Assembly: GCA_964510585.1 (NCBI GenBank)
Contig: CAZECW010000124.1
Coordinates: 1 to 6,403 of the forward strand
Length of the DNA stretch: 6,403 bases
Direction: 5' to 3'
DNA from: an uncultured archaeon
GTDB taxonomy: Archaea; Asgardarchaeota; Jordiarchaeia; Jordiarchaeales; Jordiarchaeaceae
Shown: positions 25 to 6,267 of the stretch, in pieces
How the letters are laid out: every line of letters starts with the position of its first letter
Position numbering within the stretch: position 1 is the first letter of the stretch
Made by a program: the position numbers and the translations under genes
The notes under the pieces: generated by a model
Seen by the model: the letters and a program-made list of their open reading frames with translations, nothing else
Database searches by the model: none
What the model was told of the DNA's origin: nothing

Positions 25-82
25 AGCAATACCACCTCAAATAGTGTATTAAAAATACGCGTCAAATTTCAAAAATCTTTCT

Positions 83-126
83 AAAGACAAATAAATCTAC
101 ATCACCTGTGGACATAAGCGGACATA
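83..126 (+). repeat. IS607-type left-end direct repeats (putative TnpA HTH binding motifs)
   Basis: GTGGACATA (108-116) and GCGGACATA (118-126) are 10 nt apart, with weaker copies ATCTACATC (95-103) and AAAGACAAA (83-91), directly upstream of the tnpA ATG. Short direct repeats of about 9 bp are the known architecture of IS607-family ends. Confidence 0.6.
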
Positions 127-131
127 TTATT

Positions 132-713
132 ATGGATAGACTGTACACTTTAAAAGAAGCAAAGATGCTACTCGGTGTCTGCACAAAGACTATTCAGCGG
201 TGGGACAGGGAAGGAAAAGTAAGAGTGGTGAGAACCTCTGGAGGTAGAAGACGTATTCCTGAAAGCGAAATACTGCGGATACAGGGAGAAGAAAGAAGAA
301 AGGGGAGGGTTATTGGATACGCTCGGGTCTCGTCTCCGTCACAGAGAGACGATTTGGAACGTCAAGTAGCGTTAGTCAAAAATAGAGGGGTGGAAGAAGT
401 GCTAACCGATGTGGGGTCGGGGCTGAATGAGAAGAGACGAAATTTCAGGAAAATATTAAAAATGGTGGCGGAGAGGAAAATTTCCCATATTGTAATATCT
501 TATCCTGATAGGCTTACCCGGTTCGGATTCCAAACGCTAAAAAACCTTTTCTCCGCCTTTGGAACCGAAATAACCGTAATAAAAGAAGACCAGTACAAAT
601 CACCGCAAGAAGAAATGGTAAAAGACCTAATAACCATAATTTCACACTTCTCCGGCAAACTCTACGGCACCCGCTCCCACAAAAATAAACAAAACAAAAA
701 AATGCAAACATAA
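132..713 (+). CDS. tnpA: IS607-family transposase TnpA (N-terminal MerR-like HTH + serine recombinase domain), 193 aa from ATG132; the ORF track starts at GTG108
   Basis: N-terminal LYTLKEAKMLLGVCTKTIQRWDREGK..RTSGGRRR HTH; catalytic GYARVSS; DVGSGLNEKRRNF, YPDRLTRFGF and EEMVKDLITIISHFSGKLYGTRSHK are all IS607 TnpA hallmarks. Confidence 0.95.
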   Translation: MDRLYTLKEAKMLLGVCTKTIQRWDREGKVRVVRTSGGRRRIPESEILRIQGEERRKGRVIGYARVSSPSQRDDLERQVALVKNRGVEEVLTDVGSGLNEKRRNFRKILKMVAERKISHIVISYPDRLTRFGFQTLKNLFSAFGTEITVIKEDQYKSPQEEMVKDLITIISHFSGKLYGTRSHKNKQNKKMQT

Positions 714-720
714 ACATTCC

Positions 721-944
721 CTAAAAAGGGAAAAATGCCCAAAACACTTGTACACCACACCTCCACATATGAGCATAGATGTGTAGAAAACTAGAAGGGA
801 TGCTTACATTAGCACCGCTTACCAACCCCGCCACCCATTTAACTAAACTAATGAGAATGTGGTAGTGGGGACTAGGATTTGAGCTAACCACTGATAAACA
901 AGCACATATAGGTAGATTGAAAGATACTGCACCACTCCACCCAT
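721..944 (-). pseudogene. Hydrophobic ORF of about 72 aa broken by a 5-nt tandem duplication; probably a remnant or truncated membrane protein gene
   Basis: ATG at 944 lies 6 nt after the stop of 951-1154. The ORF stops at 843-845 after 33 aa. Removing one copy of the minus-strand TTAGT-TTAGT tandem fuses it to the C-terminal part of the 721-978 ORF (..QWLAQILVPTTTFSLVKWVAGLVSGANVSIPSSFLHIY..). Confidence 0.45.
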
Positions 945-950
945 AGCTTC

Positions 951-1154
951 CTAAATGATGGGTAGAACGGATTCCCACTTAACGGAAATTCCCACCACAA
1001 GTAAGCCGATAATAACGCCCAGCGCCGCGCCCATACGCCTGTGAGAAGTCGCCAGCCTCACAATGTTAATAATAACCAAACCCAACCCCACCAAAAGAGC
1101 AATCCCAAAAACAATATTAAAAAGATCATGAAACAAGGGATAAAAAAATACCAA
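951..1154 (-). CDS. Small two-TM membrane protein (67 aa); topology resembles TrbC/VirB2-type pilins
   Basis: Two clear hydrophobic helices (IVFGIALLVGLGLVIINIV; AALGVIIGLLVVGISV) are joined by a basic loop (RLATSHRR). TTG start, with a TATA box 28 nt upstream. The family assignment rests on pattern resemblance only. Confidence 0.65.
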   Translation of the reverse strand: MVFFYPLFHDLFNIVFGIALLVGLGLVIINIVRLATSHRRMGAALGVIIGLLVVGISVKWESVLPII

Positions 1155-1180
1155 AAAATCACAAAGGATGCGGAATGTGG

Positions 1181-1188
1181 GTTATAAA
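1181..1188 (-). promoter_or_regulatory. Archaeal TATA box for the 951-1154 gene (leaderless transcript)
   Basis: Minus-strand TTTATAAC ends 27-28 nt upstream of TTG1154. Confidence 0.5.
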
Positions 1189-1896
1189 TGGCTACGATAA
1201 GCTAAAAGCTATTTGCAAATGGGTAGCAATATAGACTTTTTTATTAATTTTTCCCTAAACAGCTTATGAAACTGGGTTTTTTAAGCCTTCTTTCCAAAAA
1301 AGGAGACATAAAAACCATATGTTCAAGCGGTACTCCTTTGTGGGATTCTCTTTTTTGCGGTTGAATTCTTTTGGGCCATATGTTTAAACGGCAATCCCTA
1401 ATGCTGGTTTCATGTTTTGTCCTGTCCTTTTATTCACTCTTCGTAATCCCTCCCGCCACCACCTATATACATGACGGTGTTAAAAAATTGGAAATACCCA
1501 TTTCTCCAAAATACTCCACAAAAAGAACCCCACAGAAGGGAGCTCTCCCTAAACACATGGCTTTTTTGGGAAACTCCATATTTTAGCACAAACAAAAATG
1601 TGGTAAAAACTGGGCTGGAGAGCATTGCAGATGCGATTGGGCCAAGGGCTGGAGCAGCACAAACAAAAACCAGCCATAAGGAGTCCTGCCTGAACATATG
1701 GATAAAAATGTTTATTTCCTGGGACAAAAAGGAAAAAAATTAAAAGGAAAATCTATAGGCGGGAAAATTTCTACTATTTTCTCGAGTTAACATTTGGGCT
1801 CTCCCTTTAAGTGTATATTTCTTTATCTAGGCAAGCCCGATTTATTTGACAGAAAACTTTCTCTCTGTTTGATAATAGATGGTGTAATGTTAATAG

Positions 1897-2328
1897 TTAG
1901 ATTTTTTTAATAGTTGCGGTTACTTTTCTTATGAGTTCGTTTGTGTGGTTGCAGTTTGTGCTCTGGCAGGTGGTGCAGATTGCGAGTGGGCTTAGGGCTG
2001 TTTTCACGAGGTAGACCTTTGTGTGGTCTTGTCTTGTGGTGTATTCTTTGTGTTCGGGGTAGAGTTGGGGTAGGGTTTTTAGTACTGCGAGTTCCTGTTC
2101 TTTGGCGCAGGTTTTTTGGAGTTCTTTAAGGAGGTAAGCTGTTAAATATTTTATGTGGGGTAGTTTTTCTACTGGTCGGGGGTTCTGGTAGTTCAGTATG
2201 TTTCCGCAGGTTAAACATTTTATGTATCCTACTACTTCCACTATTTCTGTGGGGATTACTGTTTGCTGGTGGTTGCGGTCAAGTAGGAGGACTTCGGAGT
2301 AGAACTTCATGTTCACCAACTGTTTCAC
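1897..2328 (-). CDS. Hypothetical Zn-binding protein (143 aa) with two widely spaced CxxC motifs
   Basis: KCLTCGN and ICTTCQS motifs about 80 aa apart; GTG start overlaps the upstream stop (GTGA coupling), indicating an operon with 2325-2720. Confidence 0.7.
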   Translation of the reverse strand: MKQLVNMKFYSEVLLLDRNHQQTVIPTEIVEVVGYIKCLTCGNILNYQNPRPVEKLPHIKYLTAYLLKELQKTCAKEQELAVLKTLPQLYPEHKEYTTRQDHTKVYLVKTALSPLAICTTCQSTNCNHTNELIRKVTATIKKI

Positions 2329-2720
2329 TTCCCCATATTATTATTGTTGTTGTTGGTTGTTGTGGTGTATCCTTTTAGTATGTAGAGGTTGGGTTTTGGG
2401 TTGCTTAGTTGGACTGGTACTGTTTTTGTTTCTCCGAGTAGTTCCTCAGCCTTTTTTCGTCCCATGCTGGTTAGGGATATTTTCTTGTCTTTGATTTTGA
2501 AAAGTTGGGGGTAATCGTTTATCATCGTGTAGAGGTCTTTCCAGCGTTTTAGGAGGGCTCGTCTGCGGGCTATGCTCGTGAGTGTTCCGATGCCTATGGC
2601 GCTGCTTGTGGTTTCCGCTTCGGCTATGCGGAAAACCATTAGTATGTTTTTAAGCGTTTTATCCTCGCTTGGTTGAGTGCCGGCATTGTTTTTCTTTGAG
2701 TCTGAATCCGTTTCTTTCAC
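2325..2720 (-). CDS. Hypothetical protein (131 aa), probable winged-helix DNA-binding protein
   Basis: KKISLTSMGRKKAEELL fits the wing / 'LT..G' C-terminal wHTH motif, preceded by helical segments. GTG start with a purine-rich RBS-like stretch and a strong TATA box 26 nt upstream. Confidence 0.7.
   Translation of the reverse strand: MKETDSDSKKNNAGTQPSEDKTLKNILMVFRIAEAETTSSAIGIGTLTSIARRRALLKRWKDLYTMINDYPQLFKIKDKKISLTSMGRKKAEELLGETKTVPVQLSNPKPNLYILKGYTTTTNNNNNNMGK
2337..2366 (-). repeat. Low-complexity ACN/AAY trinucleotide tract encoding TTTTNNNNNN
   Basis: Minus strand reads acc aca aca acc aac aac aac aat aat aat at the 3' end of the 2325-2720 gene. Confidence 0.7.
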
Positions 2721-2745
2721 CTCTTCCCTCTTTTTTTGAGTATCC

Positions 2746-2754
2746 TTATATAAA
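2746..2754 (-). promoter_or_regulatory. Archaeal TATA box of the wHTH/Zn-ribbon operon
   Basis: Minus-strand TTTATATAA ends 26 nt upstream of GTG2720. Confidence 0.7.
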
Positions 2755-2755
2755 C

Positions 2756-3071
2756 CCCTTGAAAGAGGGACTCAGAGGTAGCATTCTTGTAATTCCTCAA
2801 GTTCATGTTTCTTATGCCCTTTTTTAAGGGAAAGATAATAATGGTGGGGGGGTCTTTAAAGGGCGATGGCACTAAGTTAAGGTAAGAGGGAGATGTGGTT
2901 TCGTTCGATTCCGCTTCTAAAAGGCGTTTATGGAGCTCCTTTAGTTTAGAACCCTGAAATAAGGGGTGGAATCAGGCGGATCAACATCACTCCACGAGTA
3001 CAAGAAAAGAATTTGGGCTTAACTTAATGCCATTGTTTTTAAAGGGGATCTCTTTCAGAGCTTTTAAAGGG
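2756..3071. promoter_or_regulatory. Array of 14-bp palindromic CCCT-N6-AGGG boxes (operator- or iteron-like)
   Basis: Perfect boxes at 2756-2769, 2817-2830 and 2952-2965; a near-perfect CGCT-TCTAAA-AGGC at 2912-2925; TTTAA-AGGG half sites ending at 2863, 3046 and 3071 (TTTTAAAGGGGA exact direct repeat at 3037 and 3062). Confidence 0.5.
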
Positions 3072-3125
3072 GAGCGTGACTCTGAAATACCGGTACACTA
3101 TGGGAGTGTGGCAGGAAACGTGTGG

Positions 3126-3133
3126 TTTATAAG
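3126..3133 (+). promoter_or_regulatory. TATA box upstream of the candidate small RNA
   Basis: TTTATAAG lies 23 nt before the start of the GC-rich stem at 3156, with no ORF downstream. Confidence 0.5.
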
Positions 3134-3155
3134 TGATTAAGTGTCAATATATTTT

Positions 3156-3235
3156 GGTGGCGACCGGCGATTCCTTTCTCGAAAAAGGGATACAATGAAA
3201 CCACGACATTTCACCTCATTGGCCGGTCGCCCACC
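3156..3235 (+). ncRNA. Candidate ~80-nt structured RNA (three-way junction), unknown family
   Basis: 13-bp closing stem (3156-3168 / 3222-3235; 11 G-C pairs, one bulged C) encloses hairpins 3170-3191 and 3193-3221. TATA box upstream; T-rich TCTTATTTT directly after. Confidence 0.5.
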
Positions 3236-3379
3236 TCTTATTTTAACACGCGACTTCTGACTCCCACCAAACATTCTCCCCTGATGCTCTTACACATGTA
3301 ATGCTCAGATCCCCTATTTCCCCTCCGAAAAAGAGCCGCTCCATTCTGTTTTACCTATAAGAATTCTGATTCGGGGAGC

Positions 3380-3473
3380 TTTTATACATATTTTTAAAAA
3401 TTTCTAGTAGCGACCTTTGCAAAAAGGCGTTGGCTCACCAGAAGAGTGAGTCGAGAGAAAGACTTTGAGGTGA
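3380..3473 (+). promoter_or_regulatory. tnpB upstream region: TATA-like boxes, two hairpins and an RBS
   Basis: TTTTATAC (3380-3387) and TTTAAA (3393-3398); hairpins CCTTT-GCAA-AAAGG (3414-3427) and GGCTCAC-N7-GTGAGTC (3432-3452); GAGGTGA (3467-3473) 6 nt before GTG3480. Confidence 0.55.
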
Positions 3474-3479
3474 AATGTT

Positions 3480-4771
3480 GTGGACGCGATTGTAATCAGA
3501 ACTTTGAGATTTAACATTGAAAGTAATGCATGTTTGGATAAAGCTTTAGAGGTTTTCAAGGACATGGTAAACGAGATGTTGAAGTACGGGCTTGAAAACG
3601 AGGTTTACTCCGCCACAGAATTAGAGAAACATTTCTGGAACCCCTTTAAAGACAAATACCGCCTGGCAACTCACTACACCACCAGCGCCTCACGATACGC
3701 CGCAAGCCTACTCCAATCCCACCTCAGCAACCTGAAAGCCTGGAATGCAAACAGAAAGCCAACCAAGGAACCTAGCCCCCCAAAGCAGAAAAAACTCTGC
3801 ATGAGACTCCAAACGATACTAGCACGCCCCAAACTAGTTAACGGAAAACTAGAACTACACATAACCATAACCACAAAACCCAAAAAAGAACACGTAAAAC
3901 TGGCACTTCAGCCATACTCCTACGCCGAGCCTCTAGTTAAGGCCTGGGCTGCAGAAGAACTTAAAGTAGGCGAAATCACCATAAAGCCATCCGAGGTCTA
4001 CATACCCTTCAAGCAGAAAGTAACCTGTAACGAAAACCCCATAGGCGCAATGTTCTTCGACACCAACCTTTCAAGTTTGGACTTCGTCGTCGCAACAAAG
4101 AACGGAGTTTTCAAAGCCTTCAGCTTAGACATCTCACTGATCCAAAAAATCAGGCAGAGATACGCAGAAAAGAGAAAGCGAATCCAGAACAAGGTTAAAA
4201 ACCCCAAAGACAGAAAAAGACTCTGGGAGAAGTACGAGAAACGCGAGAAGCGGCGGGTGAACCACCTGCTGCACCTCGTAAGCAGTTTAGTCGCCGGGAT
4301 TTCTGAGAGGTACGGTGGGCTCTGCGCTGTTTTCGGAGACCTAACCGGGATCCGGAACAGCATAAACGAGCTTCCGCGCACAAAGGAACTCAGACATCAG
4401 CTAAACCTCTGGCCCTTTGAAAGGCTTCAACAGCTCTGCGAGTTCAAGTTGCTCCAGAAACCTCTTCTGGAGGGTGTTGGATTGGCTGCTTGACTCTGTA
4501 CATTAGCGAGGAGTACACTTCCTCTACCTGCCCCTTGTGCCGAAGGATAACTGAAACGCCCCGAGGACGGATATTCAGGTGTCCGTACTGTGGTTACAGC
4601 GGTGATCGACATATTGTTGCAGCGATAAACATGGCCCTTAAGCCTGGTCCCGAGTGGCTTAACTGGGTTAGCCGGGTGGTCACTCCCTACCCCAAGGTAA
4701 CCAGAATCAGGGTTGACCCAAAAATCAGCCCTGAGGAGACCTTGAACCGGGTTTTGGGAACCAGTCCTTAA
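3480..4771 (+). pseudogene. tnpB: TnpB (RNA-guided RuvC nuclease family, about 422 aa when repaired), split by a frameshift at about 4458-4483 into ORFs 3480-4493 and 4490-4771
   Basis: N-terminal IRTLRF strand; RuvC-I FFDTN (D194, nt 4059); basic helical region (EKRKRIQ..EKRRVNHLLH); RuvC-II region VFGDLTGIR; W-P-F..L..LCEFK; ISEEYTSSTCPLC..FRCPYCG Zn ribbon; DRHIVAAIN RuvC-III region. Confidence 0.9.
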
Positions 4772-4902
4772 GAGTCGTTATAGGTGTGGCGAGTTTGGGT
4801 ATCCGCCGAATGCCAATGAGCCCCCTAAAAGGGGTGAGGAAGGGAATGATTGTGGACTTATGTCTACTTAACCCAATACCCTTATCCTATTCATTTTCTG
4901 GG
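4772..4902 (+). ncRNA. Putative TnpB omega/reRNA scaffold overlapping the element right end
   Basis: Non-coding stretch after the tnpB stop with stems GGCG/CGCC (4788-4807), CCCC-CTAAAA-GGGG (4821-4834) and AGGGAATGA/TCATTTTCT (4841-4849 / 4891-4899, two G-U pairs), ending at TGGG. The position is as expected for TnpB guide scaffolds; boundaries are inferred. Confidence 0.5.
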
Positions 4903-5413
4903 AATTAAGCTGTTACCTAATTTGTGGATACCGGTTCCCAACTATGGTTATGGAGTGTTTACCGATTTTATTAGTGATTTGGGTGTGGGGCCTTCCTCAT
5001 TCATCTTTAATACTGGTATGATTGTTGCGGGTGTTCTTACCGTGCTAATGTTTCCCACTCTGCTCAGGCCGCTGGGAAGTACGGGGAAAGCGAAGATAGG
5101 TGTCGCATTAGGAATTATTGCGGGGGTAGGGTTGGCTGGTGTCGGTGTCTATCCAGAAAATACAGGGTTTTACCATGTTTTGTTTGCTTCCATGTTCTTT
5201 ATTTCTATTTTTATTGCGGCGGGTGTTCTCAGCTATGCTAATGAGTCAACTTCGTTCTTTTCAAAGACTGTTCAAAGATTGGGCTACTTCGTATTTCCAG
5301 CGGGTCTTGTTTGCACTGGTCTTATTCTAATTTTCGGGCCCCCTCCAGAATGGGTTCATCTCTTCTTATTATTAATTTGGGCTCTACCACTAAGCATAGA
5401 AATGTTGGCTTAA
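4850..5413 (+). pseudogene. 5'-truncated DUF998-like multi-pass membrane protein gene (paralog of 5542-6234)
   Basis: YxxxxxxISDLG..FN.G, G.GV..E....H..F and G..PEW motifs. Gap-free alignment with the downstream paralog gives 83/162 identities from WIPVPN onward. The N-terminal TM helix of the paralog is missing, there is an in-frame TGA at 4847-4849 and no RBS, so TTG4850 is probably not a real start. Confidence 0.75.
4851..4870 (+). repeat. IS607-type right-end tandem motif
   Basis: TGTGGACTTA-TGTCTACTTA (8/10 tandem, 10-nt period), same orientation as and 9/10 identical to the left-end motif TGTGGACATA. Confidence 0.55.
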
Positions 5414-5541
5414 GGGAACTGCCTCTGATAGCCTAAGCTTCAAGACCCTAAGACTTAAACTCCCCACTTATCCCCCTTTTTTCACAGAAAAAAATATAAC
5501 TAGTTTAGTAGCGAATATTTGAGAAGTATGATTCCCGTGGT

Positions 5542-6234
5542 GTGGTGATCTCTGTGAAAAATAAAAAGTCCGGTTTAGGGAAAAAGCTCCCGTTGACTTT
5601 TGTAGGCGGTGTTATTGCCTTCTTGGGCATAACTATTGCAGTTGTTTGCATTTTGAGTGCAGTGTTCCTTTACACCAGTGTCTCTCCAGTTATGCCTTAC
5701 TCAGTTAAGATATTCCTCTTTAGGACTTGGGTTCCCGTTCCCAACTTTGGATACTCCTGGACTCGCCAAGCTATAAGTGACTTAGGCGTGGGTCCTACTT
5801 CCTTCATGTTCAACGTGGGTCTAATCATTACTGGTATACTATATCTCCCGTTCCTTCCTACGATCCTTAAGCCTTTGGGATACACTAGAACCGCCAAGAT
5901 TGGGATGGTAACAGGTTGGATTGCATGCGTCTCCCTCATCGGGATAGGCGTTTTTTCAGAGGTGGCATCATTCTACCATAACCTATTCTCCATATTGTTC
6001 TGGATGCTCATCGCATTAACAGCCGGTATCCTAAGTTTGGCTATGCGTTCATCATCATTCTTCTCAAAGGCAATGCAGCGTATCGGATACTTTGAGTGGG
6101 CAGCAGGCTGGACACTGGGAGTCCTCACCCTCCTCTACGGCGCTATTCCCGAATGGCTCATGCTCCTCACACTAACTATCTGGATTTACGCTCTGAGCAT
6201 AGAAATGATAGTTAAAGGAAGAAAAGCCCAATAA
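5542..6234 (+). CDS. DUF998-like multi-pass membrane protein (230 aa; true start possibly GTG5554)
   Basis: N-terminal TM helix, then GYSWTRQAISDLG..FMFNVGLIITG, GIGVFSE..FYH.LF and YGAIPEW. GGTGAT RBS-like site at 5544-5549 fits a start at 5554. Confidence 0.88.
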   Translation: MVISVKNKKSGLGKKLPLTFVGGVIAFLGITIAVVCILSAVFLYTSVSPVMPYSVKIFLFRTWVPVPNFGYSWTRQAISDLGVGPTSFMFNVGLIITGILYLPFLPTILKPLGYTRTAKIGMVTGWIACVSLIGIGVFSEVASFYHNLFSILFWMLIALTAGILSLAMRSSSFFSKAMQRIGYFEWAAGWTLGVLTLLYGAIPEWLMLLTLTIWIYALSIEMIVKGRKAQ

Positions 6235-6267
6235 AATAGAATTCCTAAAATCAGGTTCTACACTTAC

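Follow-up and report, generated by a model that had tools for sequence, protein, structure and literature searches.

Organization of the locus

We describe here a 6,403-nt stretch of archaeal DNA, hereafter the window, which is the complete contig C124 (CAZECW010000124.1) of a jordiarchaeial genome (GCA_964510585.1; 3.78 Mb in 217 contigs) and which carries a gene for an IS607-family serine transposase, tnpA, and a co-oriented tnpB gene 2.77 kb away. It had been proposed from the sequence (the original prediction) that both genes belong to a single ~4.8-kb IS607 transposon with internal cargo, bracketed by matching end motifs. Bases 107-4881 are strain-specific DNA within a gene of the DUF998 family, and we hold with moderate confidence that they represent a mosaic of decayed IS607-family and other mobile-element pieces rather than one bounded IS607 transposon. 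The three sequencing runs that hold the window sequence are hot-spring metagenomes.

The window was compared with three sister species whose DUF998 gene is uninterrupted (G001, G003, and G004; orthologues taken at 90%) and with loci homologous to the tnpB side. These are L032, a 427-kb Joint Genome Institute (JGI) contig that is extended by L082 and whose TnpB is 65% identical to that of the window; L033, whose intact tnpB served as the reference for indel counts and TnpB identity; L017/L039, a degraded copy in a sister genome; L034, an independent JGI assembly; and L035 and L036, other assemblies of the window's own population. The closest TnpA proteins (72-74% identical) belong to the canonical IS607 copies L064/L066, L067, and L068/L069, to which a further canonical copy, c47a, was added. 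The features of the window, among them miniature inverted-repeat transposable elements (MITEs) and a palindrome-associated transposable element (PATE), are as follows (wHTH, winged helix-turn-helix).

1-106, no strand assigned: terminal part of a multi-copy repeat ("T") with no relation to IS607; matches the end of contig C97 at 99% identity
107-111, no strand assigned: TGTGG, flanking host sequence at the C97 locus; beyond 111 the window and C97 are no longer identical
112-131, plus strand: inner remnant of an IS607 left end; GGACATA occurs twice at a spacing of 10 nt (110-116 and 120-126)
132-713, plus strand: tnpA, IS607-family serine transposase; open frame of 193 aa, the C-terminal tail of which is not native past residue ~187
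843-1141, minus strand: small membrane-protein pseudogene with an in-frame TAG (951-953) and lost N-terminal codons
1142-1181, plus strand: last 40 nt of a ~185-nt MITE; the query copy matched ~13 other places in the genome, all ending in ...GGAATGTGGG
1182-1896, no strand assigned: left arm of the tnpB module (1182-1231 plus 1755-1896), 80-86% identical to L032 3156-3389
1897-2720, minus strand: ~270-aa wHTH/Cys-His gene, split as orf143 and orf131 (C4 vs. C5 in the run at 2331-2334)
3126-3246, plus strand: TATA-like box and structured RNA candidate, closing stem ~3158-3240; conserved in L032 and L033
3380-3479, plus strand: tnpB promoter-like box (TTTTATAC), structured leader, and GAGGTG Shine-Dalgarno; conserved blocks in a three-way alignment with L032 and L033
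3480-4771, plus strand: tnpB pseudogene, divided between two frames (3480-4493 and 4490-4771); matches Pfam Cas12f1-like_TNB and, weakly, OrfB_IS605
4772-4881, plus strand: omega-RNA-like tail and IS607-type right end, with a terminal hairpin at 4852-4867 and the terminus ...AATACCC at 4881; conserved in L032 and L039
4882-5413, plus strand: 3' part of the DUF998 gene (Pfam DUF998), which is interrupted by the insertion; the 5' part is on contig C35
6264-6403, plus strand: first half of a 285-nt IS200/605-derived PATE, where the contig ends

The right end and its insertion site

The right boundary lies at 4881|4882 and is a true IS607-family right end. In G001, G003, and G004 the 90% orthologues of 4880-6260 run straight into sequence like that of C35, and the empty site in their uninterrupted DUF998 gene reads ...TTTAC, ACCAGTTTTCCCCTGAAGCC (20 nt and the GAAGCC end), TTATCC. 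C35 breaks off after TTTAC, the site of a PATE, and the window picks up at TTATCC after ...AATACCC. The empty GAAGCC|TTATCC is thus set against the filled AATACCC|TTATCC, and sister-species homology begins at the CC of 4880-4881. This CC (GG on the other strand) is common to element and target, as would be expected from the two-base crossover of serine recombinases (PMC6188088), and the right end recombined at a CC (GG) target. The original prediction was correct in placing a right end after tnpB, but its boundary at CTGGG (4898-4902) and its junction of about 15/16 to about 4903 give way to the position fixed by the empty sites. A right end defined to the base in three sister species documents IS607-type insertion at a CC/GG core in Asgard archaea.

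The same end is found elsewhere. L032 and L017/L039 keep the sequence up to ...CTTAACCC(A/C)ATA(C/T)CC and continue into unrelated flanks, and G005 holds the empty site for the L032 copy. In the canonical IS607 copies a hairpin is followed by ...(G/T)AACCC; like the window's right end, theirs finish in ...ACCC, and the window's aligns with them (TTGTGGACTTA... in L068; GGTCTTATGACTAC in L064 and L067). These alignments support the assignment of the sequence after tnpB to a genuine IS607-family right end that belongs to the subfamily of the window's tnpA. Exact scans with the 20-mer of the right end returned only the two loci that were already known, and an exact scan of metagenome contigs with the right flank of C97 for a filled right junction gave 0 matches.

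The tail at 4772-4881 contains three hairpins conserved in three loci, with 5 of the 25 pairs kept through changes on both sides. It is a candidate omega-RNA-like tail, the terminal hairpin of which would close a three-hairpin fold at the element boundary. This bears on the motif pairs on which the original prediction was built, a tandem 10-nt motif in front of tnpA that recurs in the same orientation after tnpB. The pairs are present, at 108-127 and 4850-4869, but the right one consists of the two arms of a 6-bp hairpin, GTGGAC-TTAT-GTCTAC (in one locus pairing is kept with A-U replacing G-U, GTAGAC...GTCTAC), and the better match is inverted, GTGGACATAAG (108-118) being matched by GTAGACATAAG (4857-4867, minus strand). 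Beyond the left end itself, 11-mers of 108-128 match the window at up to two mismatches only at 4852 (plus strand, two mismatches) and 4857 (minus strand, one mismatch); among shuffles of 4772-4881, 56 of 20,000 gave a match with at most one mismatch. The subterminal motifs of the two ends stand in the inverted relation described for IS607 (PMC6188088). Since the right ends of the canonical relatives align with that of the window, the idea of a TnpA motif at both ends is reasonable, and the sharing probably reflects a common TnpA-binding specificity; the motif would be at both ends because both go back to a common TnpA subfamily.

The left side and tnpA

The left side does not close the element, and the window contains no matching left terminus. 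At 99% identity, bases 1-111 correspond to the end of contig C97, beyond which that contig enters a citrate-synthase-like gene. The first 106 of them belong to the T repeat, copies of which (78-79% identity) lie at contig ends in G004 and G003, all ending in ...ATC(A/G)CC with different flanks; the CAGGG at 12-16, put forward as the left crossover core, is therefore part of another repeat. C97 runs on with TTGTTTGTG..., and the repeat-less orthologue in G003 reads TGTGC TTGTTTGTG. A gene starting with MFLLSYENKVYSEKKPCPKC... reads inward ~115 nt from the end of the T repeat, the interior of which was searched for in the assembly and not found.

In the canonical copies L064, L068, and c47a, 52-62 nt separate GCC...AACAGTTA... 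from the ATG of tnpA, a TATA box included. The window has a left end of only ~20 nt before this ATG, the outer ~40 nt with terminus and TATA box being missing in comparison with these relatives. Judged against them, the junction 111|112 falls inside the left end and abuts flanking sequence of the C97 locus. Going by the empty site, a left flank of 20 nt ending in ...CCCCTGAAGCC should be present, but neither the window nor any other part of the assembly contains it at up to three mismatches. The GG at 110-111 is on the strand opposite to the CC core of the canonical relatives and of the window's own right end. With its left end cut to ~20 nt, foreign DNA joined to it, and the expected flank absent, the single bracketed element of ~4.8 kb is not borne out, and because no left terminus is present, presumably nothing here can now transpose as a unit.

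The tnpA gene itself was rightly described as an open frame of the IS607 type, but it starts at 132 rather than 133 and its C-terminal tail has been replaced. Its product has the N-terminal MerR-like helix-turn-helix (HTH) domain and the C-terminal serine-recombinase domain of IS607 transposases (Pfam HTH_17/MerR at residues 4-51 and Resolvase at 60-190), including the YARVSS motif, and matches in the PDB MJ0014 (E 3.5e-49) and the ISC1904, ISC1926, and IS1535 TnpA proteins, with E values ranging from 3.5e-49 to 4.9e-17. Past ...SHKNK the tail differs from the ...KEVIKNVKNIL conserved in its relatives. In the canonical relatives tnpB begins within ~50 nt of the 3' end of tnpA or overlaps it; here, as originally noted, the co-oriented tnpB starts 2766 nt past the stop codon of tnpA, at 3480, and downstream of the window's tnpA there is no trace of the tnpB type that is cognate to its relatives. 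Two G016 copies that might have revealed the right end of tnpA diverge near the stop codon, and the GGG at 734-736 and 795-797 are mere candidates. The window's tnpA is thus an IS607 fragment without its outer left end, promoter, native C-terminal tail, and abutting tnpB, and it is fused on its left to host flank of the C97 locus.

Protein identities point the same way, as follows.

L068 vs. c47a (both canonical): TnpA 60%, TnpB 40%
L009 vs. L025 (both canonical): TnpA 56%, TnpB 37%
L068 vs. L009 (both canonical): TnpA 50%, TnpB 26%
Window vs. L068: TnpA 73%, TnpB 22% (TnpB taken from the intact L033)

Judged from these identities, which fail to co-diverge, the tnpA and tnpB of the window are not a co-inherited pair.

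The tnpB module

The proposed cargo goes with tnpB and not with tnpA: together with tnpB it forms a module (1182-4881) that recurs in other contigs of Jordarchaeia/Freyarchaeia with no tnpA nearby, and the view of it as internal cargo of a tnpA element is not supported. L032 and L033 both retain the whole set of orf143/orf131 homologue, RNA candidate, tnpB leader, and tnpB, and the right end is common to the module of L032 and the degraded copy L017/L039. Upstream of tnpB, no TnpA match was found over 8.3 kb in L082 or over 3.3 kb in L033.

Homology with L032 starts at 1182, where the 40-nt MITE tail of the window ends, and in L032 a tetratricopeptide repeat (TPR) gene lies ~45 nt to the left. 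The left junction of L032 was also sought through the empty site of G005; the left neighbor in G005 was not found within 9.7 kb of the L032 copy, where TPR and CN-hydrolase host-like genes are present instead, so that synteny simply differs. An attempt to align the left arm as a degenerate left end followed by the start of tnpA was unconvincing. In the window this arm is interrupted by three nested MITEs (1229/1232-1757), of which 1376-1560 lies in 1313-1375/1563-1701, and this in 1229-1314/1702-1757, each family having 1 to 5 other matched copies in the genome. The joints of the MITEs bear ATATG-like or TATAG sequences, and the outer MITE is flanked on both sides by TATAG.

The ~270-aa gene is a single open reading frame (ORF) in L033 and in L035/L036 (C5), and sequencing run X2 shows the extra C; L034 has C4 like the window. 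The C4 split would thus be either a population polymorphism or an assembly slip. The AlphaFold2 model of the protein (pLDDT 82) has a predicted winged helix at residues 12-96 (Z up to 10.7, VIA-align) and a Cys/His-rich C-terminal domain, VIA-align resolving only the N-terminal winged helix. The protein belongs to no Pfam or PHROG family and has just 8 relatives among 1.8 billion representatives, and a Foldseek search with the whole model, in which the C-terminal domain was not searched alone, gave nothing at E <= 0.001. A 38%-identical relative is found in L041 (ENA contig k141_1498222), downstream of ParA, ParB, and a Gtr1/RagA-like GTPase gene, in a plasmid-like setting without tnpB; other distant relatives also occur in other contexts.

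The RNA candidate at 3126-3246 is ~85 nt long, with a predicted G+C-rich closing stem of 13 bp and two inner hairpins, and has no Rfam match; in 3 of its 28 predicted pairs both bases have changed and the pairing is preserved. The proposal that tnpB has a promoter and ribosome-binding site of its own agrees with the conserved TATA-like box, the putative structured leader, and the Shine-Dalgarno sequence in front of it. As an intact partner of tnpA, on the other hand, tnpB does not hold up: in place of a continuous ORF with RuvC and zinc-ribbon domains it occupies two frames, the linker being 4 nt short in the window and 8 nt short in L032 in comparison with the intact L033. We also considered a programmed frameshift, but the indels differ (-4 in the window, -8 in L032) and thus represent independent breaks. 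The same 337-aa product is found in four other assemblies (L034-L037), and a precomputed assignment places it in PF27234 (MJ0013). In the RuvC-III region (4559-4640 of the window and homologues) GDRH is common to this TnpB lineage, and sampled related archaeal IS607 TnpBs have DRQ or NKQ, not the usual DRD; the His is thus no necessary sign that an Asp retained by relatives has been lost. Across loci, protein identity is 86-88% for orf143 vs. 60-65% for TnpB, and three of the four module copies are decayed, by frameshifts in the window and L032 and by stop codons in L017.

It is conceivable, though we regard it as rather unlikely, that 1182-4881 represents a so far undescribed IS607-derived cargo element of Jordarchaeia/Freyarchaeia that spreads without a transposase of its own by borrowing TnpA of the subfamily to which the adjoining fragment belongs. 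Such an element would comprise a wHTH/Cys-His DNA-binding protein, a promoter-driven structured RNA, a divergent TnpB, and an IS607 right end. The conserved association of tnpB with the wHTH/Cys-His gene and the putative structured RNA makes the module a candidate transposase-less IS607 derivative.

Relation to known mobile elements

The locus resembles the IS607 family (IS607, IS1535, ISC1904/ISC1926, and the MJ0014 element of M. jannaschii) in the HTH and serine-recombinase domains of TnpA, in the repeated motifs near the start of tnpA, in the CC/GG that the right end shares with its target, a family trait (PMC6188088), and in that the closest TnpA relatives come from canonical tnpA-tnpB elements whose right ends are of this type. 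It stands in contrast to this family in that 2.77 kb separate tnpA from tnpB, there is no left terminus, extra conserved genes and a putative RNA lie upstream of tnpB, and tnpB is frameshifted and belongs to another TnpB lineage than the tnpB genes found with the closest TnpAs. As in TnpB systems with a right-end omega RNA or reRNA (ISDra2 and ISXfa1), the predicted structured tail, which is conserved, stops exactly at the element boundary with a terminal hairpin; unlike in those systems, the gene is broken here. The TAM/core logic of the IS607 type has been set out in bioRxiv 10.1101/2023.08.09.552727. With nonautonomous derivatives of insertion sequences (IS) such as MITEs and PATEs the module has in common a transposon end and, in L032 and L033, the lack of a transposase of its own, a trait of elements moved in trans, but it measures 3-4 kb, carries protein genes, and has a putative left terminus.

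Interpretation of the locus

We consider the mosaic reading the best account of 107-4881: a doubly truncated tnpA fragment and other debris lie next to a decayed tnpB module, the right end of which marks the insertion into DUF998. The fragment and the module may have met through juxtaposition and rearrangement in a region that collects insertions, and a TnpA of this subfamily probably moved the module, either in trans or formerly in cis. Several points weigh against the mosaic. The start of the window and C97 may be alleles or two copies, and the left terminus of the module is defined by one other locus, L032, without a confirming empty site. The remaining points speak at the same time for one ancestral composite IS607 in DUF998, in which the left end, tnpA, captured cargo including a foreign tnpB, and the right end would once have been joined. 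Within the window the shared motif is confined to the left-end remnant and the right end, the right end belongs to the subfamily of the window's TnpA, tnpA and tnpB are co-oriented in canonical order, and all DNA of 112-4881 is without 90% orthologues in the sister species, which makes a single large insertion possible. The expected left flank precedes neither 112 nor 1182, and the true left junction could thus lie beyond the T repeat. On the composite account the T repeat landed later in the left end, before TGTGGACATAAG, the MITEs landed inside, and the tnpA-less copies elsewhere are deletion derivatives; the architecture of the original prediction would be right and its ends alone wrong. 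The composite is not easily reconciled with the comparison to L068, in which TnpA is 73% but TnpB 22% identical, with the coincidence of the boundary at 1182 with the end of L032 homology next to a TPR gene, or with the replaced TnpA tail and the absence of any remnant of a native tnpB. Moreover, the T repeat is followed by five bases, TGTGG, that equal the host flank at the C97 locus, which argues for rearrangement rather than a second T insertion. We therefore regard the composite as a tentative alternative with a minor share of the probability.

An intact and currently mobile 4.8-kb IS607 with crossover cores at CAGGG (12-16) and CTGGG (4898-4902) is barely conceivable. An open tnpA and shared motifs are all that it has in its favor; it is contradicted by the empty sites, which place the boundary at 4881|4882 with a CC core, by the other repeat at 1-106, by the missing outer left end, by a tnpB that is frameshifted in every assembly seen and a wHTH gene split in both the window and L034, and by the GG at 110-111, the strand of which would leave the cores inverted (for the mechanism see PMC6188088). 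It is very improbable, too, that tnpA and tnpB were linked by a chimeric assembly at the intervening repeats. Several multi-copy MITEs do lie in the interval, and the genome is fragmented at repeats, but L034 runs collinear with the window over a stretch that begins 20 nt ahead of window base 1 and reaches base 5481, L038 spans 35-1611, and overlapping Logan contigs from three studies tile 82-5481. Compared with the window, the Logan contigs of the three hot-spring runs show as their sole joints the MITE skips 1303->1702 and 1362->1603; no joint from 111 to a later position or from 4881 to a left end was seen in them, rare circles being invisible in contigs. The depth figures of X1 (297 for 1-107 and 59 for tnpA) are whole-contig means and were left unused. 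That the tnpB module is not mobile, and is instead a domesticated host locus in which TnpB would act as an RNA-guided regulator with a wHTH partner, might be suggested by the higher conservation of orf143 than of TnpB and by the conserved leaders and putative structured RNA. This appears quite unlikely in view of the precise insertion relative to three sister species, the different flanks in every genome, and the decay of three of the four copies.

A cargo-carrying IS607 of the kind proposed would have widened the range of cargo attributed to serine transposases. The evidence points instead to an ordinary process, in which transposon pieces accumulate and decay in a MITE-crowded Asgard archaeal genome.

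Neighboring features

The membrane-protein pseudogene at 843-1141, which together with the MITE tail at 1142-1181 separates tnpA from the module and so speaks against a single element, has paralogues on C99 (51% identity) and C4 (41%) and no 90% orthologue in the sister species. On the other side of the module, L034 departs from the window sequence past 5481, just beyond the first DUF998 gene, which indicates that the two DUF998 genes are not neighbors in all populations. The 285-nt repeat at the right edge of the window has ~90 copies in the genome, and many contigs of the assembly, including that of the window, end at such copies. In Rfam searches neither the window nor the PATE gave a match above chance. 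The repeat inserts after TTAC, and its ends bear hairpins. Its first ~66 nt are also found ~60 nt upstream of a Y1 (IS200/605) tnpA on C7, C169, and C162, from which it follows that the PATE is derived from that IS. On C35, the 5' part of the DUF998 gene that is interrupted in the window is itself split by a PATE copy.

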